Below are positions 1 to 47,600 of a stretch of DNA of 64,000 nucleotides, piece by piece; position 1 is the stretch's first letter; every line of letters begins with the position of its first letter. The DNA is from Phyllosticta citribraziliensis (Eukaryota): positions 1,922,001 to 1,986,000 of the forward strand of contig NW_027117343.1 in assembly GCF_038025025.1 (NCBI RefSeq). Direction: 5' to 3'. The notes below the pieces were generated by a model. That model had not been told where the DNA came from. It searched no databases and worked only from the letters and a program-made list of their open reading frames with translations. The translations under genes were made by a program, and so were the position numbers.

Positions 1-2414
1 CCTACCTTACTCACGGACGGACGGATGGACAGAGAAGAATTAATAGACGACGCGTATCTTAGCGTGCGTTGATGATGATGATGAAGTGAGCGGTGAGGGA
101 GTGCATGTGTGGGTAGAGTAGTCGGTAAGAGGCCGGCGCCGACGCGGGGAAATACGCATATAAATATATCGATGAGCGTCAATGCGTTTGGCCGAACGAG
201 GATCTGCTCTGAGGTGGATCGCGCGGACAGAAGAGGAGAAAATAGATGCGCATATGTGTGGCAGAAAATAGATGAAGGATCAATTGACGTCTGATGTCAG
301 CGCATGTGCAGACAGATAGACAGACATGCGTACATGAAGCATACATATGTTTCGTTTCGGTGCCATCTATGCGTGAAGGGATTGGTGTCAGCCACAGAGT
401 CTCGCGGAAGAGAAGAGTAACTATAGTAGATGGTGGTCAATCGGCTGTCGTTGCGGCCGCCGGCCCCTTGCATCGACACGCGCTTGCTCCCGGGCGAGGT
501 GGGTACATCAACCAAAGTACGGTACGGATGACGGGGTCCAATCCAATCTGCGGTGGCGCGCAAGACAGGATGCGCTAGCTGCCGTGGTGGTACGTAGGTG
601 CGGTTCAGACGGGTGGGCCTTTGCGGACGGCGCCGCCGCGAATTTACATACCGCCATTCTCTCGAAGGCGAGGTGGCTATCCTTTTTGATTGTGGCATCT
701 AGACAAGGCGGACGGAGCGTTTATGAAACAGGTGCTTCAGCGGCAGCCCAGCGTGTTTGGTGTTTGATGCGTGTGTGAGTGTTTCGCGAGCTGCAGCGGT
801 GGAGGATGCCGTTTCGAGGTCACCGCAGTCAGCAGAGGTGGTCATTTTCTCGCTCGTGAATCTGGTTTGGACATGGCGATGCTGCAGGCGGTGGTTTGCG
901 AGGCCCTGAGCGTGGAGCAAACGTGCTATTTGAAGACGTCTCCCTGTCGATGCATGCGTGATGGTTGATGGGTGCGGGAGGTTGCAGGCTTGGAGATTGC
1001 GGGGTGGCACTATCACCACATTAGCTACCATGGCGTCGGGGTCGAGGTGGACACGACAGGAGTGATGTTGTTTTTGGAGCGCACGCATCATCAATCGACA
1101 TGGCCCTGACAGCATGAAGCGGGGTTATGCAGAGGGGAAATTGGTCGTCAGTCGTGTCTTCGGCCTGGCCTGAGGTGAGAGTCGAGGAGACTGCGGTCGA
1201 GGTGACGAATCGGGCGCGAGTCAGGTTAGTCTGACGGCATGTCCAAAGGGGCTATTTTTGGGCCGAGATTCGCCAAAATGAGCCCCATGGGATCAGCAAA
1301 AGGGCCAAAATGGCCGGGGCTGTGTGCAGTGCAACCGCACCGACCTGACGCAGTGCAGTGACCTAGTGTTCTGCCCGCCCCCACGGCCATCCCACCCGTC
1401 CCCCCTTCCATCAACGCTTCTTCAATTGACCGCCTTCGCCGTCCGCCATCATCGACGCCAAGAAGCCTTTGCCCCGTTGGAGGATCGATATGCCTGTCCC
1501 ACGCCCGCTCTGCTTGTTCATTTTGTTCTCTTCAGCCGTGGCTGCGCTGGAGGGAATGGCGCCGCCTCTCTGATCAAACGCATCGGGTGACCGCCAAATG
1601 TCGGCTTCGGAGCCACCCTGCGCCATTTCTACGCCTCCGAGGCATGCAAGAGCTGTGAGAGTCGTGTCCCAACCGTCGTGTACCTGGAATGTCGAGCGCG
1701 GCGGCGCCGCCTTGAGGCGTGGGTCCCAAGTTGGTCAGAGTCCGTCACCCGTCAATGACACTGACTGACTGATGACGACTCGACACTGGATCCCAGGTAG
1801 GTAACCATTACCAAAGGGCACGCGTCGGCTGCCGAACCAAGAGGCCGTTTCATCCTCCGGGATGCCCATCCTTCGCGCAACCCAACGCTCTGCAGGCCAA
1901 CTGCTCGACAGCGCCGCAACCCCAGCGTCGATCTCGAAACCCATCTCTCATTTGTTCTGCCCAGGCACGCGCGACCAGGACGTCTGTCAAGCCGTGCGTG
2001 CAATGCCCGCCATTGCGGCGCTGCAAATGGAGCCCGGGGCTCTGGGTGAGCTTCAATGCGGCGCCAGCGTTGGCGACGCAACCTTCTACAGCTCCACCAC
2101 CTTTCTAAATCGGGCCTGTGCCCTCGCCCACCCTGGTCCATCGCAGTCTGACCTCACTCTCTGTGTGTGGACATGTGCCCAAGCTTCTGCTCTCGCAAGC
2201 CCTCTTTACCCGTAGCCGCCTCTCCAATCCTTTCAAATAATTTCCTGGAGTCCCTTCAGCCTTGCTGCTCAGCCCTTTTGTCATTGCTTGCTGGACAAAC
2301 TGTCCGTGGCGCCAGCCCCGTGAGTCGCACCACATATTCTCATAACAACCTGGCTCAGCTAGCCGAATCTACATATCCGCCCCAAGGTGCCTGCATATCG
2401 GACGTGGAGATTCA

Positions 2415-25617: not shown

Positions 25618-26389
25618 ATGTCTTCACTCACCTCCACCGCTGCCACTCGGCTCCAGGCTGATAAACCCTCGACCTCGTCTCACCCGCCCGCCAGCGCCCC
25701 CGACCCGACCTCGACCTCGACCTCCAATGCCTCCCAAAGAGGATTCGCCGCCTCCGCTGCCGCCGGCCCCTCCGAACTCGCCAGTCTTAAAGTAAACCTC
25801 AAGGCCGCCCTGCGCCAGTTTCCCGACTTCCCCGAGCCCGGCATCCTCTTCGAAGACATTCTCCCCATCTTTGCCAACGCCGACCTCCACAAGCAATTCC
25901 TGCGCGCCCTCGAGCTGCACGTCTCGACCAACTACGCCCAAAAACCCGACGTCATCATCGGCCTCGAGGCCCGAGGCTTCCTCTTTGGCCCCAGCCTGGC
26001 CCTCGCCCTGGGCGCGTCCTTTGTCCCCGTCAGGAAAAAGGGCAAGCTCCCGGGCCCCACCCAGACGGCCAGCTACAAGAAGGAATATGGCGAGGACTTT
26101 TTCCAGATGCAGGCCGACGCCATCAAGCCGGGACAAAAGGCCCTGATTGTCGACGACATCATCGCCACTGGTGAGTAATGATAATGCGGCTCGACGTGAC
26201 GCAGGCAGGGGTGGCTAACGGCGTGCAACAGGCGGTTCTGCAGCAGCTGCAGGCCAGCTCGTCAAGCAGCTGGGTGGCTCGCTGCTCGGCTACATTTTCA
26301 TCCTCGAGCTCGAGTTCCTCAAGGGCCGCGACAAGCTCGACGCACCCGTGTACACGCTGCTATCGGGCCAGGAGGAGAGCTCGGCGTAA
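25618..26389 (+). CDS. apt1: Adenine phosphoribosyltransferase, 2 exons
   Basis: [29 protein letters not shown] and [10 protein letters not shown]. Intron 26171-26231; TAA at 26387-26389. Confidence 0.96.
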
Positions 26390-26955
26390 ATGAGCCAGTC
26401 TGACTACCAACCGGCAGGACGGCGCCCAACGGTCGCTGCATGGAATCCGGACCGCGTCATCACAGTGCGTCGAAGCGAGCAGTGGAGTTCGGACCGTGGG
26501 AATCTCTGCGTAGACGGTGTGAAAATCTCGATTGCGGTGCAGGGCTGAAGGGGGTGCTCGATTGGGTGGGAAACTTTGCCGGACCTTGACATTTCACATG
26601 GATGATGCTGCTTATCTGCATGGCATGGCATGGCATGGATGGAGCGATGGACCTTTTGACCTTTTTTTTTTTTTTTTTTTTTTTTTTCCTCTCCACTGGA
26701 CGAGAGGCCTGGATCTTTCTACCATAGATTTCGGAGACTTGTGTTGCTTGCCACTGCATACAGCATCATGGGCGTAAATATACATACAGACCAGGAGAAA
26801 CACGTTGGCTTGTCAAAGGGTCCATGGCTGGTCGTGGTGCTACCCCGCCGTGGCAGCCCCACCATTGGCCCTCTGCAAAGAATTGGCCGGCTCAGGTCGT
26901 GACTGGACCGACACCTGGACTGCATTCCACCGCTACCACCAACCTGCACTGTACC

Positions 26956-27791
26956 ATGCTCGCCCGCGCTCCCGTCCGCCAGCTTACCACGTCGCTCACT
27001 CGCATCGCCCGTCCGCGATTGATCCTCACTCCCCTCCGCCAATTTACCACCACCAGAAACATGTCTGACATGCAGAAGGTCTTCACCAACAAAGCCACCG
27101 CCCGTAAGCACCCCTCGGCTTTGTCAACCGCGTCTAGCTCCCGTTGACTAACAATCTACCTCTAGCCGTCGGCCCCTATGTACGTTTGGCCTACATTTCC
27201 CACCCCAGCAGCGGCCATCGTCGCCGCACTAATCCACTGCCCAATCTCCTCCTACATCACCCCACCCGGTGAGGCCGTCGAGCTCCGGAGCTCGGTGTCG
27301 CCAGAGTCATCAACATCAGTCAACCATGCCGACGCGCCATGCCGCTCAATTGGGCATTCCTCGATGCGATTGGAGCTGACACACAACAGTCGCAGGCCGT
27401 CGTTGCTGGCGGGCAGGTGTACGTCTCGGGCCAGATGCCCGCCGACGCGCAGGGCAACCTGGTCGAGGGCACCATTGCGCAGAAGACGGAGGCCGCGTGC
27501 AAGAACATTGTTGCCATTCTGGAGGAGGCCGGCAGCGACATTTCGCGCGTCGTCAAGGTGCGCAACCCGCTCTCACATCTTTCCTTCGATTGTTGGCAGA
27601 TAAGTGGCTGACTCTCGATTGTGACCCAGGTCAACATCTTCCTCGACGACATGGCCCACTTTGGCGAGATGAACAGCGTCTACGAGAAGTTCTTTGCCCA
27701 CAAGCCCGCGCGCAGCTGCATCGCCGCCAAGGCGCTGCCCAAGGGCATCCCCCTTGAGATTGAGTGCATTGCCCTTGCGGGCAAGGCTTAA
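26956..27791 (+). CDS. RidA/YjgF/UK114 family enamine-imine deaminase (Mmf1/Hmf1-like), 4 exons
   Basis: Exons 26956-27103, 27166-27179, 27390-27557 and 27630-27791 give PVGPYSQAV, VSGQMP, VVKVNIFL, MNSVY, KPARSC and LEIECIA. Confidence 0.93.
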
Positions 27792-28385
27792 GGTTGTAAA
27801 CGCCAATCGGAGTCTTCTAGCAGCCACGTAGTCTTGCAGTCATCAATGACACTTGAAATGAATCATGTTCGAGCAATTGGTCCCATTGCAAACACCCATA
27901 ATTGAATCAAAGTGCCAATGCAGCGAAGTGAGCGTCTTGTTGTCTCGTCATCTCTCGCCGGGTAACTTTTTTCGGAAAGGGTCCCCGCGCTTCGGCGCCG
28001 ACCCACGCCAAGCCCATTTTCCGCTGACCGCCCGACCGCTGCTTGCGCGTGTTTAGACCACCACAGCTTTTGGAGCTTCGTCCAGCATCCCAACTCACAC
28101 GCTCCCTCCCCACCTGCGTCATTGACACAGCAAATCCACCGCGAAGCGCGTTTCGAGCACGTATCGACCTCGTCCGCCCACTACACGGCCGACTCTACTG
28201 CTGCGCTCACGACACCGACTTCCGTTCTTCGCACCGCAAACCCGCGAGCAAACAGCAGCCTCCTGCACAACCCACGACGACGACGACGACGACGACAACC
28301 GCTGCCGCCGCCGCCGCCGCCGCATAGCAAACGCTTACGCCTCTGCGCCACCCCTCTCATCTCCTCAACACACCGCCTGCCTAGC

Positions 28386-29048
28386 ATGGCCGCCGCCGAC
28401 GACACACAAATGGAGCTGGACCCAGCACCAGCATCGCCGTCGTCACCCTCGCGCAACAACGCCAAACACACAACACAACAACAAGGCGTGGTGGTGGAGG
28501 CGCGCACCAAGGACGGCAGCGCGGTCGCGGTGCGGTCGATCGAGGGCTGGATCATCATCGCGACCAATGTGCACGAGGAGGCCACCGAGGAGGACGTCAC
28601 GGACCTGTTTGGCGAGTTTGGCGAGATCAAGAACTTGCATTTGAATCTGGATCGTAGGACGGGCTATGTTAAGGTGGGTTCGGCCGCTTCCTCCCCACTT
28701 CCTGCTCCCTCCTCCTCCACCACCTACACCTCCCCCTCCATCATCTCATTTTGACTGGCTGTTTGCTCTTCACTCCCCACTGACCTCACTCCCCAGGGCT
28801 ACGTGCTAATCGAATACCCGACCGTCTCCGAAGCCCGCGCCGCCATCGAGGGCGCCGACGGCAAGAAGCTGCTCGACCAGACCATCGCCGTCGACTACGC
28901 GTTCGTGCGGCCGCCACCCAAGCAGGGCGGCGCCAGGGGCGGCCCGCGACGAGGCGGTGGCGGTGCAGGTGGAAGGGGCCGCAGTCGCAGTCCGGAGGAT
29001 AGGGCTAGGAGTCGTAGTCCCGAGGGTAGGGGTAGTGATGTGGAGTAG
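28386..29048 (+). CDS. RBM8A: Exon junction complex subunit Y14 / RNA-binding protein 8A, 2 exons
   Basis: [32 protein letters not shown], and an RG/RS tail. Intron 28674-28796. Confidence 0.96.
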
Positions 29049-29271
29049 TGTCGCGATGAATGGGGATGGGGGAGTGGGAGGGGGATGGAGGGGTTGGACT
29101 GCTGCGCTGAAATGGGCTTGGACGGATGAAGACAGGCATCCTACGATGCTGACTGTCTACAGCCAGTTTGTCAGGCAAGGCAGGGCAGGCGAGGCGAGAC
29201 AATGAACGAGATGACGGAGCCAGGCGCAAAAGACACAGACCGACCAAGGAGGCGCTTTCTGGATAGCTGAG

Positions 29272-29311
29272 GTACCTACGTACCTACCTACCTACCTACC
29301 TACCTACCTAT
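29272..29311. repeat. (TACC)n microsatellite
   Basis: Run of TACC units downstream of RBM8A. Confidence 0.9.
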
Positions 29312-29559
29312 ATGCGTAGGTACATGCATACACATACGTCACTGAATCACCGAACCAACACATCAACCTCCATGTCCTGCACTCCTGTCCATCCTATCAA
29401 CAGCCGACCAGCCAGCCGGCCAGAACACGGTGCCTCAATCGCTCGATGGCGATGCTGATGCTGTCGTTTGTGCAATGATGCTGACGATGAGGTTCATGGT
29501 GCCATGATACCATGGTGCTGAGTCTCCTGCCCAGTTCTTCGCGGCTTGTGTGTGGCGAG

Positions 29560-32500
29560 GAGAGACGGACGGAGGAAAAAGTGACAAAGGCGGTCAACCA
29601 TGCAGGCGGACGGACGGACAGACAGTAGATATTGACTGACTGTGTGGCACGAATGTCGACGCTGCCATCGCTGTGATGCTGGGTTTTCTGTGGGGGAGAG
29701 AAGGGGGGTTTTTATACCCGCGTCTGCAGCGGCTGAGCTAGGGGGTCAGGAGCTCAGATGTCAGAAGCAGATATCAGGAGGTCAGATTTCAGCGGTCGGA
29801 CAGCCATCAGTCCCGCTGTCTGCCTGCGCGTGTCCCGGTCAGTGCATATAAAACCTCACTCGTCCTCCACCGACAACCTTCCATCAACAACACTGGCGGC
29901 TTGCGTGCCATCCAGCTGCGACCCGGTGGTAAACTAAGCTTCGACTGTGTCGCTCCGTCGGCTTCGCGCCTGCGGGCACCGTCACTGTTCTTGTTCTTGT
30001 TGTTGTTTCTTTCTTTCTTTTCATTTCCTGCGGAGTCAGTCAGTCAGTCTGACATTCCCCGAAGAACTTCATCACGCCACGCTGCTCCTCCTCAGCAGCG
30101 TCGCGGGACGGTGGTGCTGTGTGTCGATACTTAATGGTGCAGCTCGTTGTCGTTGCTTTGCTGAGATTTGAGTTGGCCTCAGGGGGCGGAAATGGCGGAG
30201 CAAAACAAAACAAAACTGCCTCCAAAAGTACTTCATGCAGGCGTGGTTCTGCCAACACGGGCAGATAGACAGTCAAACACTCTGACTGGGTAAGCTGTCG
30301 AACTGTCGCTGGGTGCGTTGGTTGTTGAGCGGTGAAGTAGGGGGGGAGAGGGAGGGGTTTTTATACCCCAAGTCCCAGCCACAGGTTCCGATAGACCGGG
30401 CAGCGCAGCATGTGACAGATGCGATGCGGCGAGTGCTGTGTCGGCACCTGACTGCGGTGACTGTTTGACAGGTATAAAGATCGCCACCCTCCCCTGACGG
30501 TCTTGCAATGCCAGCGCTGGAGTCGACATACATGACGACCACCCCAGAGGACTGTACTTTGTGACGAGGAAGAGAACGCCACTGTGTCTGTTGTCTTTCC
30601 GTTCCTGCTCCGCCGCCGCTCGCCATGGACTCTAGAACTCTTTCTTCTAAGTCTCAGGCTCTCTGTGGCGTTTGCACGTCGTCCATCACGTCCGCTCGTT
30701 GCTGATTGCCGCCGTTTTGCTCCGATGACGCTGTGTAGCATCTTAATCTACTGCTTCTGCCTTACTCGCAAAAAGCGCGCTCAGACTCAAAGAGGAGTCT
30801 GCTCAAGCCAGACACACCACCTCCCCAGTCCGTCTTCTGGTTGAACTTTCTTCCGCCAGCTCCCAGTGTGCTTCTGCCCACCGTCGTTTTGAGAAGTAGA
30901 GTCGGCCACGATGTCGATGCGTTCCCGTCGAGTGGGAAGAGAGAGGCTTTTATAGCAGGAAGTCGAGTTTGGAGCGCGGACGGGCCAGCCCGCTTCTAGG
31001 ATGGAGGTGTGCAATTGGCTGCAGTGTTGAGCTTGTGCTGTCAGCACTTTGACTGCGGTGCGGGTATATAAGACCACCTCCTCTCCCTCTCAAAGTGCCA
31101 GGATAGCGGCGGTCGTCTTCCAGTGGCAAGGCGAGTTCTAAGACATACTGAAACTGCTTTTTTGCTCCTCTGGAGGCTCAACCTTCTCGCGACACTCTCT
31201 GTTTTGTTGTTCTTCTGTTCCGCTTCTTTGAGATAATGTTTTGGATTTAGGGGTTCTTCATCATCTTTGCACCTCACGCTCGTCATTGTTGTGCAGTGAT
31301 GTTGCTGTGCATCCACACCACAAACTACTCTTCTGCGCGCGACTCTTTGCCTCCACTTCCCAAACACCAGAAGTACATAGGGTTTGGTCTCTTGAGCGCA
31401 CCAAACAAGTCGGGTCCCAGTGTTTCAGGTGTCCACCACAGTTACAACCCGGTGGGCCGTACAGTGCTGCGCGTCGAAGCTGGAGCCGATGAGTCTTCGA
31501 AGCGAGGAATCGACGCCCCTTTTATACAGTCTACCTCTTGTGGGCTTCACATGTAGCAAGCCTAGTATACTATCCATGTGACAGCGGTGTCACAAGTGAC
31601 GGTGGCGACGCATGTGCCGCCGCCTCTTCGACCGCGGGTATAAAAGAAGCTGTTCTGCTCTCTTTGAGGAGCAGTGTCCATGAAGTCGAAGTCCTGGCGT
31701 GGGGATGGCAAGGTGACGACGGTGGGGAGTTTGACTCTTTTCGTTCGTCGTTCGTCGCTCCGCGGCCTGTGGGTTTTGATGTCACTTCAACGCCAAAGAT
31801 TCATACTTGTCTTGTGATGATTTTGAGCATCGCCATAGCATAATGCTCCGTCGTATCTTTGGTCTCAGATATCGTTCATCGCTGTATTGCTGAAGTTAGA
31901 AGAGTGTCGGGGAAGTGAGGACGCCTCGGCGAACCCGCCCAGTGAGAGAAGTCCCGAATTTTGCGCAGAGCCGGCGCAGCGACACAGTTGATGATTCCAG
32001 GATCTTCATAGTTGAACTGGAGGTGCATCGGTGATGAGCTGATAAGGAGGTGCTCCAGTGGTCTATTTACACTCGTTGTCCAGCTGGATTCAGGATCAAG
32101 TCTGCGGCGCGTGCGAGGGCAGTCAGATGCCAGCGATGCGTCAGTCACAAGGATCTCGGACTAAACTTAGGCAGCAGGGCCAGCGCTTAGCGGTCTGGCA
32201 TGTGCTAAACGTGATTCTGCGGTCTTTGTAGGTATAAAAAGGGATGTCTTCATTCTTCCCTCTTCTCCTCCACAGCGCAGCGGTCTTCTCTCCTCCATGC
32301 GACTTGGAGTGAAGTAGAGATCACAATGCCGTTCCCTCACTGTTTTTCTGTTTGTCTTTCTTTGCTTTGTCTCTTCTAATTTGTGTTGGGAGCTTTGAGG
32401 GTTTCCATTGATCAAACGGCGCGGAAGATGTTGCGCGTCATTGTCAAGTCCTCGTAAGGTCTTTCGCCGCTTTTGGGGGCTGTTGATGCGATGAACGCAG

Positions 32501-35500
32501 ATTCCGATGTCCGGAAACTCTCGATCCCTCCCGAAAAAAAAGAAAGTCGAGGAAACGCAAGAAACACGGCCGACAAAGTCAACGAAATCTGTCATCTTTG
32601 TTCAGTTTAACCTGTGTTCCCATCAGGATTGTGTCGATAGAGCTCAAACTCTGGGCAGAGCCGGTCGCGTTTTATAGAACAGCGAACATGGGGGCGAAGT
32701 AGGTGAGAGTCAGGGGTTCAGGGGTCAGGCGACAATTTCGTCACCTGTCTTTCACAAGCCGCTGGGCTGTTCGAGTAGCTGAAGGCATGTGTTAAACCTA
32801 GCTTTCATGTGCTTGTTGGGTATATAAACACTCAATCTGTCCGCTTGCTTGTTTGCTTCTTCAACACTGTCGTCGCTAAGCTGGATGAGCAATGAGCACG
32901 CAAAGATGATACTGCGACCATATTATCCCCTTATGGCCACTCTTTCTTCTCTTTGTCCCTTCTTGGAATTCCCGCCCGCTGGTTAGCGCAGACCTCCTTC
33001 GGATCAGATCAGGGCTCTATCTCGCCGCTCGGCACGATCAAGAGATTACGACTTCCACCACTCCTAATGAATATTGCTGCTTTCCATCCCTCGAGTATAA
33101 TGAGACTCTGGAGCTTTCCGCTTAATCCAAAGGCTGAAAATTCCAGGGCACGGCCACCGCGAACACAGTGTTCATTTTGCCGAAGTCCTCCAACCAAATG
33201 CAACTCTTCACTGTCAACTTCCTGCGTAGACATGGTTGCGCAATTGGCAGTTTGCAGTGGAGATACACTTACTTTTATAGACGAAACACCGACGAGCGAC
33301 TTCTGGAAGCGCGTCACGAGTTCACGTTCCGAACTGCCCCAGTGCGCGGTCAGGGGTTCAGGATTTAGGAGTCAGCTGACGGAATCAACCGCGCCGCGCC
33401 AGATGATTCCCTTTTTTTTTTTTTTTTAAGTATAAAAGCACATTGTCCTCCCTGCCACTGTATAGAGCCTTGGAAACGCCAGGCAGAGGATTTACGTATA
33501 CTGGTCCGGCTTTGCGTTGCTTTTCGGCCAACGAGTCAGTCTCTTCATGTTCGGTACTTGTGTTTTGCTCTTGGTGTCCATCTGCTCAACTGTTCATGGC
33601 TTTCAGTCTTGTTGTCAATTCTTGTTGGTGGTGGTCGTCATCGACAACTCCAACTGCTCAACATCGCCCCCACAAAATGTCGCTGCAGATTCCATATTTT
33701 GCGGGGGAAGGCCAAATAGGCAAAACATTGATAAGCCTCCAAGACGCAAGACCAAGTAGCAGCTAGAGGTGGATTGAACAATTATACATCCGAAAAGTGA
33801 CGCATGGGCTGGGGTTTCCGCAACGCGACACAGGCCAGGAGCTGCGGCGGATGTTGGACAGATCAGGAATAACTGACAAGGCTTTATATCCAGGACGGCT
33901 GGAGCCACATGCAAAATGTAGCCCCGTCACAAGCGCTGAACTGATCAAGGGCGATTTGTGGCGGAGTCAGGGGTCAGGGGGAACATGTCATGCGGCAAGC
34001 AAACCCCATCGGCGACTCCGCGGCTACATTTCAGCAGTCTTCGTCAGCTCTGCTCAACAATACATTTTCTCTCTTGCTTCTTTGCGGGGAGACAGGACAA
34101 GCGAAAATTTTGTCCAGTTACTTTTGTCGTTTCTCGGGGCGGCGAAGGCATCGCAATCGCCTTGCTTTTTCTCAGCGGTCATTTCCATCACTTCAAACTC
34201 ATCATGAGTACATCGACTCATATGTCTTCATCTTGGCGCCATGCCGAAGTTCTGCGCTGTCTCCGAGTCGTGCACAGCCAGTGTTGAGAATTTCGCCTCC
34301 TACCCCTAAAAAGCGCAAGCAAGCCAAAGAGAAGGAAAGGTGCGTATCGATGTAACCGGAATTTACTCCCACAGTTTCCCACATGCTGTTGAGTATTCCT
34401 TCGCTGAGGGAGGCGGGTGAGTAGAGGAGGTTGAAGTGATGCAGCAAAGCCAGCGAAGCGGAGTTTTTATACCTGCGCGAAACGCTCAGGGCAAGGCGAA
34501 TCACATGCGGCGATTGATCATGATAGCGATGCCGCTGAATGGCCGTCAGGCGGCGGGAGCCGTGCTTACGCCTCTTTCTGCGAGTATAAAATGCCCCAAT
34601 CGCTCGATTTCCACTCAGTCTTCAACCAGGCATTCCGGTCTCACAAAGTCGCAACAACATAGCGTCACGGCTTGTCGCTCTGTGCCCTTTTATTTGGTCA
34701 CCTGAAACTTCAAGAACACAAGACTTTTGTTTCTCATTCCCCTACCTCCTACCCTTATGCAGCTCACACTCTTCTCGATCCCGCCATCCGCTTCTTACTC
34801 ATTCACCATTAACACTTAACGTTTGTCGACGACATTCCATCCTGGCGCTGCCATTCACCGGGAGCATTCAAACACCAACCCCAGAGAATCCCTGGAAACA
34901 TGCAAAATCAACTCCGCAGGAAACAAAAAGAACAAAGTCAGATCGTTGTAGGCGGTTTGCCGCAAAGACACAGGCGGCGCCAGTGGGTCGTCGAAGTTTG
35001 TGCTCCGCAACTTGCTCGTTGAAGTGACTTGGTGTTCAGAATGCGGCGGAAGTAGAGCGCTTTTATAGCTGCCGGCAGAGCATCCTCGCGCATGCAGTCA
35101 CAGGCAGCAGGCTGCAGCCTGTGGTGACGCATCACGAGCATTCGATCGAGGTCAGGCGCGAGGAAATGCGGCGCTCGTGCCCTCCGCCGCGAGTATTTCA
35201 GCATTGCTTTTCACCTCTCGAATCAATCCATTCCAAGCCGCGTTCCGGACTTCGAGGGATACACCACTCAACGACCGTAACACTGGCTTGCGGCTCCAGA
35301 ACACACATGTAGCAGACTTGGCTTTTCTTTTGTCTTTTCTGTTCAGTTTTCCACTCCCCATGTCTATCCAAGCTCCTGTTCCGTTTCTATTGTTGATGAG
35401 GTGCGTCAACATCGCCACATCTCGTCGAAAATCATTCTGAGCGAATCATGCCGAGATTCTGTCGACGTGGACGTTTTGACATCTACCCGCTCACCCACCG

Positions 35501-36450
35501 CGCAAAAGGCAAGTCATTAGCCATGGTGGCGGATGCTCCCACACAACCCGTCCTTCTTTCGGCATGCATCTGCAGAGCTCTGGGAGCGATGCGGATTGAC
35601 CTGGTTCATCGGCTGCAAACAGCAGGTCTCTTATACCACCCCAGCAGCGGCGATAGCATGTGCCAGCCACGAGTAACATGCTGCCAGCAGTTGCTGCACG
35701 TCAGGGGCACATGTCCTTCGCCTCCTCTCAGCATGTGGCTTTCGAATCCACGGCAGTATAAAAGCCGCATCCTCCTCTTGCTTGGATGACTACAACAAAC
35801 CGCGCAAAGGGCGCTGAGGAAGGTACTCTACGAAGATAGACACTTTGGCAAGCGGCTGCGAATGAGAACTACACTTTTCTGTCCTGTCATGTCCGCGGCA
35901 CGCACCTCATCCTTCCGCAACCCAGCCACCAGCGCAAAACCAGCGACTCGCCATTGCTCTCCCATGCCGTCAAGCACCACTCTTCCATCTTCTTTGTTGA
36001 ACGCGGTCACCACGCGCAACCCCACCCTACCATGTCTGCCATCCGCCATCCACCAAGCGCAAAAACAAGTGGATATTCAGCGATCAAACCTGCGCGGCAA
36101 ACAGTGCACTCTCCTCAGTCCTGACCTCTCCAGCTCCGGATCCAGCACAGTCAAAGCTTGATCCGCGCGAGTTCTTCAAGCGCCGGGAGAAAAGCTTGTG
36201 GAAAGAAGATGGACAACGGGGTCTTAAGGGCGTCTTAAATACTACTGTTCATCGGTGCGGTGAGCCGCGCGGCACATGCTTATCACAAACAAGACTAGAT
36301 TACCCATGCGCAATTGGCACGGGGACGCGAATCCAGACATTGGTGATTTGCATGTGGGACCGCTGGCTGGCTGCGTATATAAGCTCCCTGCTCTCCTCCT
36401 CGCTACGAAGGCAGACAGCAGAACGCAACAGAGCCGACGCAAAAGATGGC
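29560..36450. promoter_or_regulatory. Phased array of 12 divergent TATA-box pairs with ~595-bp period, probably non-coding
   Basis: Minus-strand TATA boxes start at 29716, 30365, 30954, 31526, (32071), 32676, 33279, 33888, 34471, 35067, 35635 and 36241. Plus-strand boxes start at 29847, 30473, 31065, 31639, 32233, 32821, 33431, (34025), 34585, (35194), 35757 and 36376. Brackets mark degenerate sites. No credible protein gene in the interval. Confidence 0.8.
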
Positions 36451-36782
36451 AACGAGAAAAAGGGAACTTTGGCGTGGGCGGAAAATGACGCGATCGATTA
36501 CTTCCCGGTTTGCTTGGGAGGTGAAGACCTTTACTGCGGTGCTCGTGTCGTGTGGCAGTCCTCAGGTAGAGAAATTCAGCGGATGCTGCTTAGCAGCATC
36601 GTCATCAAAACAATCTGAGCACCACCATTTTGGACTGGCAGTGCACCACATCATCGTCGCTGATAGCGTGGAGTAAGGGGGCGGGCTTGACGTACACGAG
36701 GTGCCTGCTCTGGAACAGGGAATTGAGGGGAAAGAAAAGACAAGACAATGGTCCGAGTTTGTTTGAATCCACACAGACAGCT

Positions 36783-36826
36783 TCCGTCCAACGCCATGCT
36801 GTTATCCGTCCAACGCCATGCTGTTA
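36783..36826. repeat. Perfect 22-bp tandem duplication
   Basis: TCCGTCCAACGCCATGCTGTTA at 36783-36804 and 36805-36826. Confidence 0.95.
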
Positions 36827-37213
36827 TTCTTTCCCTGGTTTCAGGGCTGGAGGAATGCCACGAGAGGCTCCACCATCGAAGACAGAAGCGGAGGCGCCTC
36901 GTATGCAACCCAAACTCAACAGGCTTTGTCCGGCCCCGAAAATGGAGTAAGTGACGTCCAGTCTGTTCGGATAAGCCTCTCCCGTCTCTCAGCCAAGTTT
37001 TGAACGTCCAGCTAGGACCGATACATTTGCCGTTGTCTGACAGAACACGATTCGTCCATTCTCGGTGCCCTCACGAATCCATTCGAAGCCCACCTCAAGA
37101 TCTTAAATCCGTCCAAAACATAAACCGGTTCCCCTTTGATCAATTTATGACCCAAAAAGCGAAAGGAAACAGACTGTATGCATAAAGAGAGCCAAATCAA
37201 TTGTTTCGAAGCA

Positions 37214-40200
37214 TCAGGCATCCGTGACGACCCGACTGCTCCCCTGAGATGCCGACGCCTCTTCGTGCTCTGTGGGTTTGTCTTCCAGCATTCGCTGTTG
37301 TGTCGGTGCAGTCGGCCAGAGGTTGAAAGGGTTCCAGGCGCTAAGCATCTTCGCCAGAGGGCTCTGTTGCGGAGTCGTGGGTGCCGGGGAGTCAGTGGTG
37401 GCCCGTGGGGTTGGTCTAGATTCTTCGCCCGGGTCTGAGAGGGTTCTGGAACTCAGGCTGGCTCGCTCTCTTCTTTTTTGTTCCAGCACGGGGAGAATTT
37501 TGGTCGTTTGAGATGGGAGCGTACTCCGAACTACTTCGTCGATCGTCTTCGGGTCTCCTGGCAGGTGAAAAGAGAAGCCAGGATCTTGTCGCTGTAAGAC
37601 AAGATACGGATCTGCGCCAGCAATGAGCAGCATAGTAGTAATGTCTCCAATGACGACGCTGTCTATCCAAACGTACGGACTGGCTGAGTGGCATCGGAGC
37701 TAGCAGTATTGATCAGGATCACCGATTTGGGGGATGAAAGGCTAGGAGTCTGACGAGAAAAACTTACTTCGTTGAGGAACATCTCCCACAATGTCAACGC
37801 CATACCAGGCACAGTTTCGTTGACGTCTGCTTGATGTCTCAGAACCTCAACTACTAACATGCGGTAGTCTATTCTTGTCTCAGGGCCAAAGCAATGTAGC
37901 AAAGTACACATTAAGACGCTGAAACTGGCCTTACTCTGGACGTGGCGACCTTGGAGCTTTTCCAAGACGTACCAATCCAAAGCGAATAGGGAGGCCACGT
38001 CAAGGATATCAGCTGCTTTGAAAAGGCGACAGGGAATCGATACTAAGTTACTCCAGTGTTGATCCTGTTGAACTCGCTGAGTCAGTACTCAACTGGTCTG
38101 GTCTGTTTTACACAAGGGTTTGCATCTCACCTGGGCTGAAATATGCGACGACATGGAACTTGAGAATAGATGGTCAACCTCGTCGATTAGCCGCGTCAAT
38201 GGCCGAGCCCATTGTTCCTCATAGCTCCGAGCAGGACGAAGTACTGAGTCCAATGATCCATCAAGATACTTCATCGTGTTCTTATCCTCGCTCCTCAACA
38301 GCCTTGGGAGGTCCAAGCACTTTAATACCATCAAAGAACCTTTGGCATTGACCAAGTTGGCATCAAATATGCCGCCGAGCTCTTTTTCGAGATACTCAGG
38401 CATTACTTCGTCCAAAAGGTAATCTCTGACTGTGCGGTGCAAGAATTCCACCCGATATACTGATACTTCAGCGCCTTCGATGAGGTCTTTCTCAGTAACG
38501 TGGAGAAAATCTTTGCATCGTGCGTTGATGCGCTTTTCCAGGCTGTTCTTCCAATCATCTATCTCAGATCTTGAGACTTGATGGAAGGTATTTCTGAAGA
38601 CGTACTCTGGATCATCCTCTTTGTCCAATACTTGAAAAGTCGCAAGTGTAGGGGGAGTTTCCGACTTTAAGCATATTTTCAGCATCCGCGCCGTATCCCT
38701 GCGATGTTCGCGCCTGATGGATTTGTAAATGCGATCAAAGAGTGCTTCCAGCTCAGTCGGGTAACTGTTGACCTTCGTCCACAGATCTTTGAAATTCGCC
38801 CCTTCAGCTGGCGCGCTCAGGAGCATTCGGACTACGAGGAACACCCATAGAAATACCCCTGAAGAGTTCTGTACAATATGATCTGTCATTTCATCGAACA
38901 TGGTACCCATTAAGGCCATGAGATCCGGGCTTTCGGCGATTGTGTCCCTGGTAAACTTTCGAATGTCGTCTTCGGTTAGCTCGTGGACTCGGCATTTGGT
39001 GCTGGTGTGAAAAGCGTGCTCGAATTTTTCCCACGGCCGGCTTGACACGCAAAGCTTGACTGAGGGCACATCCTCAAATCTCTTGAGAAGCCCGGTGATT
39101 TCATCCTGAGTACAGTCGTACTCGTCGAGCCCGTCGATGAAAAGACATATTTTCGGTCTTTCAGTTTCATCCACGATTTTACACAATGCGGCTTCCAGCA
39201 TTTTGGGTGAAATATTTCCTAGTTCCCGCTCGTCGCGATCCAGCCAAAGTCGTGGGAAAATTTTGGGAATCAGGACTGGGTGTTGCCGTAAGATCTGAAA
39301 GACAGTGGAGCGGAGAAATCCTTCACGAGAGCGCTGCATGCTGGACCCAGATGTCCAAAAGTAGTGGCTCGCGACGGCGATCTTCTGGTCTCCAGCCCAC
39401 GATTCCAAAAGTCGAATGGTCTCGTTATGGTCCATGATGAATTTCATCAGTGTGGACTTGCCGCTCCCGGGCTTTCCACTTATCCAGTAAATGCCGCTAT
39501 GATGCTCAAGCCAGTCAGGGAATCCACGCTTTTCATTGTCGAATATCCATTGGAAAGTGCATTTGTGAGCTACGCTGACGTTGTTGTATCGATCCATGTG
39601 TTCCAAATACTGTAAGCGTTTCAGGATTTGCAACGCCTTGTCCGCCTCCTGCTCTTCCTTCGTAAACTTGATAAACAAGTCTGCGATCCTACTATAGTCA
39701 ATGGATTTTGCGTTGATACTTTCGATAATTCGGTCTCCTGTTGACGACAGCTGCTTGGAAGTGTCTGCTTGCAGGGTTCTGTCCATTTGCGCGACTTCAT
39801 CGAGCTTCGTCATCAAATACGAATTGTCGCCCCTGTTTTGTATTAGTTGTGTCTCCAATAGGGCGATCGAGGAGCCACGTACTTGACCATTGATATCAGT
39901 CTCGAGTCGAGTGCTTTTTGCAACCTCTGGAGTCTTTCATGAATCTCGAGTATCGCTCTCTTTCTTCGTCTTGCGCGGAAGGTCGACCTGACAACTTGCC
40001 TTCTTCGATGTGTCGTATCTTCGGGGAGAACTAGAGCTCGTAGCTCCGTTTCCAGGCTCTCCGCAACTTCGTCGTAAAGGTTGGAGATTTGCAATACGTC
40101 TTCCTCTTCCTCGGTGTGACTTGTTTTCGACGACAGCCTCGTTTTGAGCAACGTTTGCTGTTTGCGCATATCGTGGACAATCTGGCCGATGTCAGATATG

Positions 40201-44698: not shown

Positions 44699-47600
44699 GG
44701 TGTCTAGCAATAGAATAAAACCAACGTAGAGAAAGGACAAAGCTGAATTGGGAGAGTAGCCAAGGTAAGAGAAGAGTGAAGCGACGGTAGGTACAGCGCA
44801 AGAGGAGCGGGGTAGCAAGATTTATTCGCCATGATGCCCAAGTGACGACGGTCGGGTGGTCTTGCTAGCGTGACGTAACCGGCCGTAGGGCTGACTGCAT
44901 GGGTGCGGTGGTCAAGCTCACGCCTCCCGCTCGACCCGCGACCGCGCTAACTGCTTTCGGCTATGCGATCTCCACTTGGGGGCGACACAACGTTAGCAGC
45001 GTTCCCGCGGTAAACTCTGAAGAGAAATGTCAGCTGAGATGATCCCGGTTGAAGTCGACGAAGCGAAAGTGCTTCATTTTTGAAGAGGAAGTGGAGTGAA
45101 GTAGCCAAGAAGATTTGACACGGTCTTCTCAGAGGACCAAGTGACGGGAAGTGATCATCTCCTGAACAACACCATTCGCATGAGCAGCTCCTCGCACTTC
45201 ATGGCGCCTTGCACCGAACACCCAGAATCAGAACCAGCGCATCGCACGGAACAGCGGGTGCAACCCAAACCGCAAATGGTCGCCGAGTCATCAACAGCAC
45301 GGCGCAGCAGACCGATATAAAACCCCCCAGACTCTCCTCCGCCAACTCTTTCTTCTTCATTCCCGGTTTTAGCGCATCACGGAAGGGGTCCCTGATGATG
45401 CCCTCCCCCATTCACCGCCCCCGCCCCAGCGTCCCTGCGCCTCGTTTTGTTTTCCAATCCACCGGCCCTTTTTATGCACCTGCACCTTTTTCCGGGGACC
45501 CGATATAATGCGTACCCTTTTCTGCTTACTCTTCTTTGCTTCGGCTTCCATTGGCTGGCTGCTTTTGGTGGCCTTGTCTGCGCTTTTTTGATCTCAATGG
45601 TGTCGCCCGCGTAGCACTACTGCGGGATGGCGCATCCTACTTTTTTTTCTCACTGTGGCTTTCGCCTTGTGCGGGTCCTCGGAGAGAATTGATGACGGGC
45701 TGCCCATTGAAGTTTGAGCGAAGCCCGCATGCACGTTAGATGCGTAGCTGAGCCTGACAATTTCTGACCGCGAGGTTCCGTCAACCCATTCGACGCAGCT
45801 GGCTCTGAACACGGCGGTCAGAACTTGCCTGATGCGTCAAAACATGGAAAGGCCGGCACAGCTGGGATATTGGGCGGCGTCTTGGAGTCTTTGACGAGCA
45901 AGGCATCACTGGCCAGCTTTCACGGGCGCGAGGTTCCAAAGATCGTACAGTGAGGTAGCTGGTTGCGCTCACGACAGGCTTCGAAAACCCGGTCTATGGA
46001 GACACACCGAGATTCCAAAGACGCTGAGATGCCTGCCGACTTGCCCTTCTCGGAGCGGAGCAGGATAGAGTAGTGCAAATGCCGGACCCTTCGCTGCAGC
46101 TCACAGCAAAAGCGTCCTCGCCCATCTCCACACCCACCGCGCCTCCTACAGCCTTGATTCAAACCTCTCACTCTCACTGCTGGCCATCCAGGTCTTTCCC
46201 CAAGCGCCCGCATCAAGCGAACGACTCAATGAAAGAAAAAAGGCAATGTTCGCGTCAGCCCCCAGTAGTGCTACGGGAGCGACACAGTGACGGCCACGCA
46301 TGGGCAAGCCCAGTGGCGCAGCGCGTCGCGCGGCAAAAAGTGGGTTAACCAAGAAGAAGGCCGTAGCCTTGGTTCAGTGGTTAAACTGAACAGAACAGGT
46401 ACTACACATGATCTGGCCGAGCACGTTAGCAAGCGGAGGGAGGTAGGGTGGAGGAGGAGGGCGTCGTACCTAAGCCAAAAGGCAGAGAGCTGGAGAGGAA
46501 AAGAAGAGGAGAGGAGTTGGGCGGGCTGGCAGGAGGTTTTTATAGAGGCGTTGGTGGGTGTGGTCTGTGCGGCGGGCGCTGGTAGACTGCGAAGGCGGTT
46601 AGTCGATGCCGCTGGGCAGCGCCTGTTGGCGGGCTTGCGGCAGGCAAGCACCCGTACGGTACGGAGGCGTTGTAGCAGAATCGCTTCGACGTGGCGGGAA
46701 ACCGATGGGCGGATTCAAAGCGTCGCCTCATGCTATCATGAAGCTCAACCACAGCACCCAAACGAAGCGAAAACAGCGAATGTCAAGGAAACAGCAGGTC
46801 GTATCTTCCCTCTACGCTGAGCAAGCACAGATCAATGGCTCCAGCCTGAAGTGGTGAATGAAAGGTCCCCTTGTCCAGCAGCGGCGTCAGAGCTTGCTCT
46901 TTGTTTCGACACGCACCGCACGAGTAGCTTCGAGAGAGCACAGGGCAAAAACAATCGACCAGCAAGCAGAGATATACGTCGAAGAAGAAAGAGAAGAAAG
47001 GCAAAGACAACTGGTCAAACAAACCCTCGGAAAGAAACATACCCATCCAAGTTTGGAGACTTGTTGTTGACGCTCAGACCAGGAATCCTCTGCATGCAGC
47101 CTCCAGCAAGATGCCGGTATGCCACTGGCATTCTACGGGCGCAGACAGCCAGCCTCCTCGTCCAAGCTCACTTACAGATTCCTACAACAAGCAACATCAT
47201 GGTGCTCAGTAGTCCCGCACAGTAGCTAGGTAAGCAGCCGCCATCTTCGACGAACCCGTGGACCCTCCTCAGACCTGCTCCGCGACCCATCTCGAGCCGA
47301 CCTGCCAGTCCTGATGCGCAGGCTGTACAGCTGTCAATCTCCGCGCCATCCAATGAAACAGAACGGTAGACGTCGAAGAAGAGCAGAGAGGAAGGAAGGT
47401 CGAAAGGGGAAAGAAGAAAAAAATTGTCGTCCGTGGAATGAAATGATCCCCTCTTGCACATCAAACGCGCGCAACGCACGACTCATGCCCAGACCCTCTC
47501 GTCAGGGATCGAAGATCGCACACCAGAAGCCTTCCTCCAGTCGTTCGCCGAGCGGGCGCGGTACCTGCGCTGGTGGTCGTGGTGGTGTCTCGGAAAATCA

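Follow-up and report, generated by a model that had tools for sequence, protein, structure and literature searches.

Rows of back-to-back promoter pairs are known from the silkmoth chorion locus and from the histone H3-H4 / H2A-H2B repeats, and the promoter pairs of both carry common short motifs. An array of similar layout, a row of back-to-back promoter pairs with short shared 5' regions, was analysed here in a stretch of 64,000 nucleotides of Phyllosticta citribraziliensis (assembly GCF_038025025.1, contig NW_027117343.1, positions 1,922,001 to 1,986,000 of the forward strand; the whole stretch is called the window). In it, 12 pairs of outward-facing TATA boxes span positions 29711-36382 (an array of 6.7 kb), and the spacers between the paired boxes are enriched in the word CATGTG (CACATG on the other strand). 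Whereas the chorion and histone arrays serve conserved coding genes in alignable units, the segments in the present array are unique, carry no coding signal and are faced by promoters from both sides.

The hexamer CATGTG is documented as a site read by basic helix-loop-helix proteins with a leucine zipper (bHLH-ZIP) (PMC8173187, PMC10516642). It is found as a promoter element near the core promoter in the M-box of MITF/TFE and in the site of Cbf1, the latter with the consensus RTCACRTG (PMC8173187, PMC10516642). It also forms the core of the yeast inositol upstream activating sequence or inositol/choline-responsive element (UAS-INO/ICRE), whose consensus CATGTGAAAT is bound by Ino2/Ino4 and which stands in several copies before co-regulated units (PMC3852131). 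The array shares the hexamer with these sites. Its flank differs, as a G stands at -1 where the M-box (TCATGTG) has a T and the Cbf1 site has RTCAC. From the yeast element it also differs in the units that it serves, which are non-coding and have no link to lipid genes.

The disiRNA (dicer-independent small interfering RNA) loci of Neurospora show convergent transcription with dynamic DNA methylation and lie in the gene-rich part of the genome (PMC3764098). By its promoter layout, the array would resemble them in convergent RNA polymerase II transcription over short non-repetitive stretches of a filamentous ascomycete; it differs in being a periodic array of TATA cassettes with shared motifs, of which the abstract of that paper makes no mention (PMC3764098). 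Literature searches, with subscription journals outside their coverage, turned up neither an account of such arrays nor one of GCATGTG as an element in fungi. E-box-like promoter elements as such are of a known kind; for the fixed, mirror-image placement of this one before both TATA boxes of a periodic non-coding array, those searches gave no earlier description.

Enrichment and placement of CATGTG

CATGTG or CACATG was located at all 14 spacer positions named in an earlier note on this DNA, as were the related words GTCACAAG (three copies) and TCACAAG (Table 1), the word CATGTGACAG at 30409 and 31575, and the two copies between pairs (34380 and 35304). The whole window contains 42 copies, 16 of which lie in 30366-36375. 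By region, 14 copies are found in 1,537 bp of spacer, 2 in the 4,990 bp of the 11 inter-pair segments and 26 in the 57,301 bp outside the array (0.45/kb). The spacer expectation is 0.70 at the window rate and 0.89-1.67 under first-order Markov models; dinucleotide shuffles of the spacers gave 1.80 ± 1.32 copies with a maximum of 8, and 14 copies were reached in 0/5,000 shuffles. The concentration in the spacers claimed by the note (14 against 0.7-1.8 expected) was thus borne out. Cassettes 1-12 hold 0, 1, 0, 3, 1, 2, 0, 1, 1, 0, 3 and 2 copies, respectively. The count of 8 of 12 spacers given in the note is right if the motif-less pair 29711/29847 is included, and does not hold within the coordinates of the note itself, outside which that pair lies.

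Among the 891 6-mers present in the spacers, CATGTG ranks first (P = 2.9e-14 against the rest of the window), so that it tops an unbiased ranking and is not a cherry-picked word. First among 1,199 7-mers is GCATGTG, with 10 copies in 8 spacers, 1 inter-pair copy and 5 in the 57 kb outside the array. When the 14 copies were aligned, a G was found at -1 in 10 of them and the other flanks were uninformative; the effective shared word is the 7-mer GCATGTG. Variants of GCATGTG with one mismatch are also in excess in the spacers (14 against 4.6 expected), and one of these, GCTTGTG, holds the usual position before the right TATA box of cassette 3. Ten E-box classes were compared in the spacers, and only the CATGTG class was strongly enriched (14 against 0.70 expected), with CAGATG next (4 against 0.83) and CACGTG at 0.

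Ten of the 14 copies are placed 15-36 bp upstream of a TATA box and point toward it, with copy-to-TATA distances of 28, 34, 35, 15, 25 and 25 bp on the right side and, read on the minus strand, of 27, 23, 36 and 36 bp on the left side. Random placement in the same spacers gave 2.6 such copies (P = 5e-6), the range of 15-36 bp having been picked post hoc, after the data had been viewed. An untuned statistic, the mean distance to the TATA box pointed at, was 42 against 66 ± 9 bp (P = 0.005). Of the module CATGTG-N9-34-TATAWA, the array holds 9 instances; the other 57,350 bp of the window hold none, and 615,872 bp from 80 other ascomycete loci hold two. Core promoters with a proximal sense copy number 10 of 24, or 11 if the GCATGC of cassette 10 is counted. 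The CATGTG word is a TATA-proximal element used symmetrically on both sides of the cassettes.

At the edge of the window (103-308), GCATGTG at 103 and 302 flanks a TATAAA at 159, and this could be the rim of another such promoter region.

Layout, partner words and transcription of the array

A bidirectional TATA cassette is taken here as two outward TATA boxes 100-170 bp apart. Twelve pairs show this arrangement, with paired boxes 113-169 bp apart from start to start and an interior of 107-163 bp of unique sequence between them, in which the shared content consists of short words only. The spacing of the left-box starts, which is the cassette period, is 543-649 bp with a mean of 593. Canonical TATAWA is present in 19/24 boxes, mostly as GGTATAAAAG with a CT-rich stretch after it. 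The array has 6 strict TTTATA...TATAAA pairs, the rest of the window has 0, and so have the 616 kb of the other ascomycete loci, these being 80 metagenome loci found via exon 1 of the flanking Y14 gene (0/80 with a strict divergent pair; full-length matches to that exon at ≤65% identity). Within 26178-38089 there is no open reading frame (ORF) of at least 150 amino acids, and the array sits inside that gap.

Two other words accompany CATGTG in the middle of the cassettes. GTCAGG has 10 spacer copies across 8 spacers, in the same orientation in 9/10, and its extended form GTCAGGGG has 5 copies across 4 spacers and 0 in the background. TCAC[AG]AG is present 6 times in the spacers and 7 times in the 57 kb beyond the array, and TCACRAR is in plus orientation in 7/7. 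The usual order is left TATA, CACATG, TCACRAG, GTCAGG, CATGTG, right TATA, with TCACRAG and GTCAGG(GG) mid-cassette and, unlike the E-box word, in near-uniform orientation. At least one of the three words (CATGTG, TCACRAG, GTCAGG) is present in 11/12 cassettes, and cassettes 1, 7 and 10, which have no CATGTG, carry GTCAGG(GG) and/or TCACRAG. In addition, GCAATTGG, which reads CCAAT on the opposite strand and is also a CAATTG E-box, is found in or beside cassettes at 31011, 33240 and 36310 and elsewhere in the window only at 27873, and may be a fourth shared word.

The spacers align no better than shuffled sequence (mean score 17.4 against 15.2 ± 2.5), and neither do the inter-pair segments; all blastn matches within the array or against the rest of the window were ≤29 nt. 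The shared words are therefore not a matter of simple shared descent. A repeat or transposon reading was rejected, as no alignable similarity links the units with one another, with the remainder of the window or with the 80 loci; so was a miniature inverted-repeat transposable element, whose short inverted repeats the TATA ends mimic, and against which the regular period and the unique interiors argue. The regular period and the common word polarity point to an old tandem duplication. Several cassettes hold 2-3 copies of CATGTG at differing places, and from words of 7-8 nt that have outlasted their diverged surroundings with varied position and copy number we infer that selection may maintain them. 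Unit length has been tightly kept (543-649 bp) though the unit sequences no longer align, which suggests a constraint on spacing or on transcript length.

Much of the array is covered by contigs of runs X1 and X3 (Table 1), which are RNA-derived because the introns of both flanking genes are skipped in them (28671>28795, 37699>37768 and 38063>38130). Of the 16 listed ends of these strandless contigs in the array, four (30290, 31683, 32284 and 35002) are found 44-75 nt downstream of a TATA box and on the proper side of it. The contig beginning at 34709 represents a polyadenylated minus-strand RNA, because it carries 8 non-templated T and the genome letters before 34709 form no T run; its end at 35002 lies 65 nt downstream of the left TATA box of cassette 10, and this RNA of about 294 nt reads as starting at the left promoter of that cassette. 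The transcript of the NLR-type gene to the right extends into the array and is faced by the right promoter of cassette 12 (12R). The promoters face each other over segments of about 470 bp, and from this layout the facing transcripts would overlap.

Coding and structured-RNA readings of the segments between the cassettes were both rejected. Over 26 strands, two for each of the 11 inter-pair and 2 outer segments, the longest ORF averaged 60 amino acids against 45.6 ± 22.6 in shuffled sequence, and the first-ATG ORFs looked random and had no shared peptide features. The mean fold z-score over 22 segment strands was +0.23 (range -2.45 to +2.46). Rfam searches of the array, with E up to 10, gave nothing beyond three chance-level rows, and a tRNA scan found none.

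Table 1. Coordinates of cassettes, word-TATA modules, RNA contigs and flanking genes in the window
Feature	Position	Strand	Details
Cassette 1	29711-29852		TTTATA 29711, TATAAA 29847; CATGTG absent; GTCAGG 29745; outside the list of the earlier note
Cassette 2	30360-30478		TTTATA 30360, TATAAA 30473; CATGTG 30409, 64 bp upstream of right TATA
Cassette 3	30949-31071		TTTATA 30949, TATATAA 31065; exact CATGTG absent; GCTTGTG (one mismatch) 31031, 34 bp upstream of right TATA; GCAATTGG 31011
Cassette 4	31521-31644		TTTATA 31521, TATAAA 31639; CATGTG 31548 (minus), 31575 (plus), 31611 (plus); GTCACAAG 31589
Cassette 5	32064-32238		left TATA degenerate (TATTTA 32064), TATAAA 32233; CATGTG 32199; GTCACAAG 32144
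Cassette 6	32671-32828		TTTATA 32671, TATATAAA 32821; CATGTG 32786 and 32806; GTCAGGGGTTCAGGGGTCAGG 32709; TCACAAG 32752
Cassette 7	33274-33436		TTTATA 33274, TATAAA 33431; CATGTG absent; TCACGAG 33314; GTCAGGGG 33349; T16 run before right TATA
Cassette 8	33883-34023		TTTATA 33883, right TATA not recognisable near 34018; CACATG 33906; GTCACAAG 33926; GTCAGGGG 33966 and 33973
Cassette 9	34466-34590		TTTATA 34466, TATAAA 34585; CACATG 34502; GTCAGG 34545
Cassette 10	35062-35198		TTTATA 35062, right TATA degenerate (GTATTT 35193); CATGTG absent; GCATGC 35090 (28 bp from left TATA); TCACGAG 35132; GTCAGG 35151
Cassette 11	35631-35762		left TATA degenerate (CTTATAC 35631), TATAAA 35757; CATGTG 35657 (plus), 35708 (minus), 35732 (plus); GTCAGGGG 35700
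Cassette 12	36237-36382		left TATA degenerate (TTAAATAC 36237), TATATAA 36376; CACATG 36273, CATGTG 36351; TCACAAA 36283; ATTGG (CCAAT) 36313 and 36339
Plus-strand module, example	31611-31644	+	CATGTG, 22 bp, TATAAA; others start at 32199, 32786, 32806, 35732, 36351
Minus-strand module, example	33883-33911	-	CATGTG, 17 bp, TATAAA, read leftwards; others begin at 31553, 34507
Minus-strand module with degenerate TATA	36278	-	
X1 RNA contig	29319-30290		right end 75 nt downstream, read leftwards, of the cassette 2 left TATA; spans cassette 1
X1 RNA contig	31683-32221		begins 44 nt downstream of right TATA of cassette 4
X1 RNA contig	32284-33747		left end 51 nt downstream of the cassette 5 right TATA; spans cassettes 6 and 7
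X1 RNA contig	34125-34572		
X1 RNA contig	35128 onward		joined to NLR-type mRNA, reaching well inside the array
X3 RNA contig	33438-33702		
X3 RNA contig	34993-35258		
X3 RNA contig	36343 onward		joined to NLR-type mRNA
X3 RNA contig, short polyadenylated RNA	34709-35002	-	8 non-templated T before 34709; about 294 nt
Left flanking gene	28386-29048	+	RRM protein, Y14/RBM8 type; exons 28386-28673 and 28797-29048; spliced joint in RNA contigs; tail faces array
Right flanking gene	37214-39813	-	NACHT NLR-type (NPHP3_N, NACHT, DUF7791); introns near 38064-38130 and 37700-37767; stop about 37214; tail faces array; limits do not include the N-terminal part beyond 39813

Candidate reader of the word and alternative explanations

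We consider it fairly probable that GCATGTG is a promoter-proximal cis-element of this family of bidirectional TATA cassettes and a putative docking site of a regulator. A sequence-specific DNA-binding protein would read GCATGTG and help to set initiation at the adjacent TATA box, many of the 24 small promoters would share one input, and the promoters would drive short, apparently non-coding RNAs converging across the unique segments. The most plausible reader would be a basic helix-loop-helix (bHLH) or bHLH-ZIP dimer that takes E-boxes of the CATGTG class; the CANNTG form, which all 14 copies have, makes a bHLH reader plausible.

The analogy with Ino2/Ino4 drawn in the earlier note turned out to be weak, as the 10-bp yeast element is present in 0/14 copies, CATGTGAA in 1/14, and the conserved G lies on the other side (10/14). 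The Cbf1 consensus fits only 3/14 copies (30409, 31575 and 34502). The note had also proposed that one factor co-activates the whole array, which is overstated, as 4/12 cassettes are without the word and at least two other enriched words are present. What stands of a shared array element is that it is genuine, specific and promoter-linked; what does not is its generality, as a proximal sense copy is found at only 10/24 promoters.

Several observations weigh against a bHLH-read promoter element. The exact copy is absent from cassettes 1, 3, 7 and 10, and 14/24 promoters have no proximal sense copy. The distance range was chosen after the fact, and orientation toward the nearest TATA box, taken alone (10/14, P = 0.09), is not significant. 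The background for the enrichment is a single 64-kb window, with 616 kb of foreign ascomycete loci used in addition. A scan of 26 window ORFs showed no bHLH gene, the commonest bHLH-ZIP site, CACGTG, is absent from the spacers, and the conserved G at -1 matches neither the Ino2/Ino4 element nor, mostly, the Cbf1 site. Read-through transcription exists, because some RNA contigs bridge whole cassettes, and the contigs are strandless and can neither map starts nor rank expression. To these are added the 8 listed changes in spacer 12 of a relative, organism B (run X6).

Run X6 is DNA, because its contigs reach 51.5 kb, and the array can be aligned to it over most of its length with roughly 7-11% differences per piece. 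Among the 40 of 1,020 differences listed, 8 fall in spacer 12. One of them, 36353 T>C, turns the CATGTG at 36351 into CACGTG, by which the E-box is retained and which bHLH-ZIP proteins would also read; through another, 36289 A>G, TCACAAA at 36283 becomes TCACAAG, which is the consensus. No change at the copies 32786, 32806 and 36273 is among those 40. The changes in organism B are compatible with an E-box reading, on thin evidence.

The alternative that survives best, which we hold possible but doubtful, is that GCATGTG is a real protein-binding element with a non-bHLH reader of a GCATG core, the CANNTG form being coincidental. It accounts for the G at -1 in 10/14 copies, for GCATG occurring 15 times in 9 spacers against 4.5 expected, and for spacer variants that keep GCATG without the TG (GCATGC at 35090, GCATGTT, GCATGCG and GCATGGG); the lack of CACGTG in the spacers and of a bHLH gene among the scanned ORFs fits it as well. 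On the other hand, 10/15 GCATG copies extend to the full GCATGTG, another E-box, GCATCTG, occurs twice among the one-mismatch variants, and the change to CACGTG in organism B breaks GCATG while leaving the E-box. We know of no documented fungal reader of GCATG, and literature searches gave none.

It is quite unlikely that the copies are functionless remnants of the tandem duplication of one word-bearing unit of 590 bp. The regular period of 543-649 bp, the nearly single orientation of TCACRAR and GTCAGG, as expected of head-to-tail duplicates, and small residual identities, such as GGGGTTTTTATACCC, shared by cassettes 1 and 2, and the GTCAGGGGTTCAGG family of cassettes 6-8, would follow from such an origin. 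However, all else has diverged past alignment, and neutral 7-mers would not persist in 8/12 units; copy number varies from 0 to 3 per cassette and the places vary, the TATA boxes have also been retained (19/24 canonical), and the array is transcribed.

We think it very improbable that the word acts in RNA, as GCAUGUG or its complement, in processing, termination or protein binding. Cassette sequence does occur in RNA, as contigs run across cassettes 1, 6 and 7 and over spacer 5, and the ends of two X1 contigs (32221 and 34572) fall 12-13 nt short of a right TATA box. But the copies mirror each other across the cassette and point at the nearer TATA box, so that an RNA reading through would contain the word in both senses; the single poly(A) site mapped (34709) lies between pairs, about 120 nt short of the cassette; and a fixed position upstream of TATA is the behaviour of a DNA element.

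That the enrichment is an artefact of composition, from a GC or dinucleotide skew of the spacers, is hardly credible, as the spacers are richer in GC than the inter-pair segments (59% against 52%) but their dinucleotide shuffles and first-order Markov expectation reject it at the scale of the window, where a genome-wide background could lower the fold, and nine other E-box classes of similar composition have no comparable enrichment.

Genomic setting and meaning of the array

The array lies tail-to-tail between two convergent genes, with 29048-29711 and 36382-37214 as the intervening stretches, and the outermost promoters, the left one of cassette 1 (1L) and 12R, point into the 3' ends of these genes because the array lies between their tails. 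The window resembles the genome of a filamentous ascomycete in its short GT..AG introns, confirmed by spliced RNA contigs, and in its genes, among them ones for a Fungal_trans regulator, GH76, kinesin, APRT, 6PGD and proline dehydrogenase. A protein-atlas search returned DUF7492 clusters of fungal or eukaryotic origin only.

Some side observations were made around the array. A perfect 22-bp tandem duplication of two copies (36783-36826) lies between promoter 12R and the stop codon of the NLR-type gene. On the other side, a long T run follows the APRT gene (26655-26690) and a (TACC)n microsatellite (29273-29316) stands just before the array. A U2 small nuclear RNA gene at 46244-46437 on the minus strand, the one RNA gene that Rfam gave in the window, has a full-length match (model 1-192 in 194 bases) and so is an intron-free copy. 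Three short pieces of run X8 (organism C), at 28000-28106, 34131-34345 and 35963-36195, are identical to the window at very low depth, and this run probably holds trace amounts of the organism of the window.

A wider reading, which we regard as unlikely, is that the array is a generator of overlapping sense and antisense RNA, in which autonomous mini-promoters, wired to a common factor that reads GCATGTG, would fire at each other and so yield small or double-stranded RNAs on demand. The unique segments would then serve as guides or decoys, and antisense RNA from the outermost promoters would run into the tails of the NLR-type and Y14 genes. Nematode 21U-RNA loci, which are motif-driven small-RNA clusters, are the conceptual counterpart of such a generator.

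The cis-elements of filamentous fungi are poorly catalogued, and in this array a single 7-mer singles out a compact, self-contained group of up to 24 core promoters. With its fixed TATA geometry, the array is a natural test bed for the cooperation of an upstream factor with TATA in both directions. GCATGTG, 9-34 bp and TATAWA, together with GTCAGGGG and TCACRAG, form a signature by which promoter arrays can be searched, and the reading factor, once identified, would offer a handle to switch all units together. If such arrays make double-stranded or small RNAs, GCATGTG would be the input by which a new type of RNA-generating locus is controlled.

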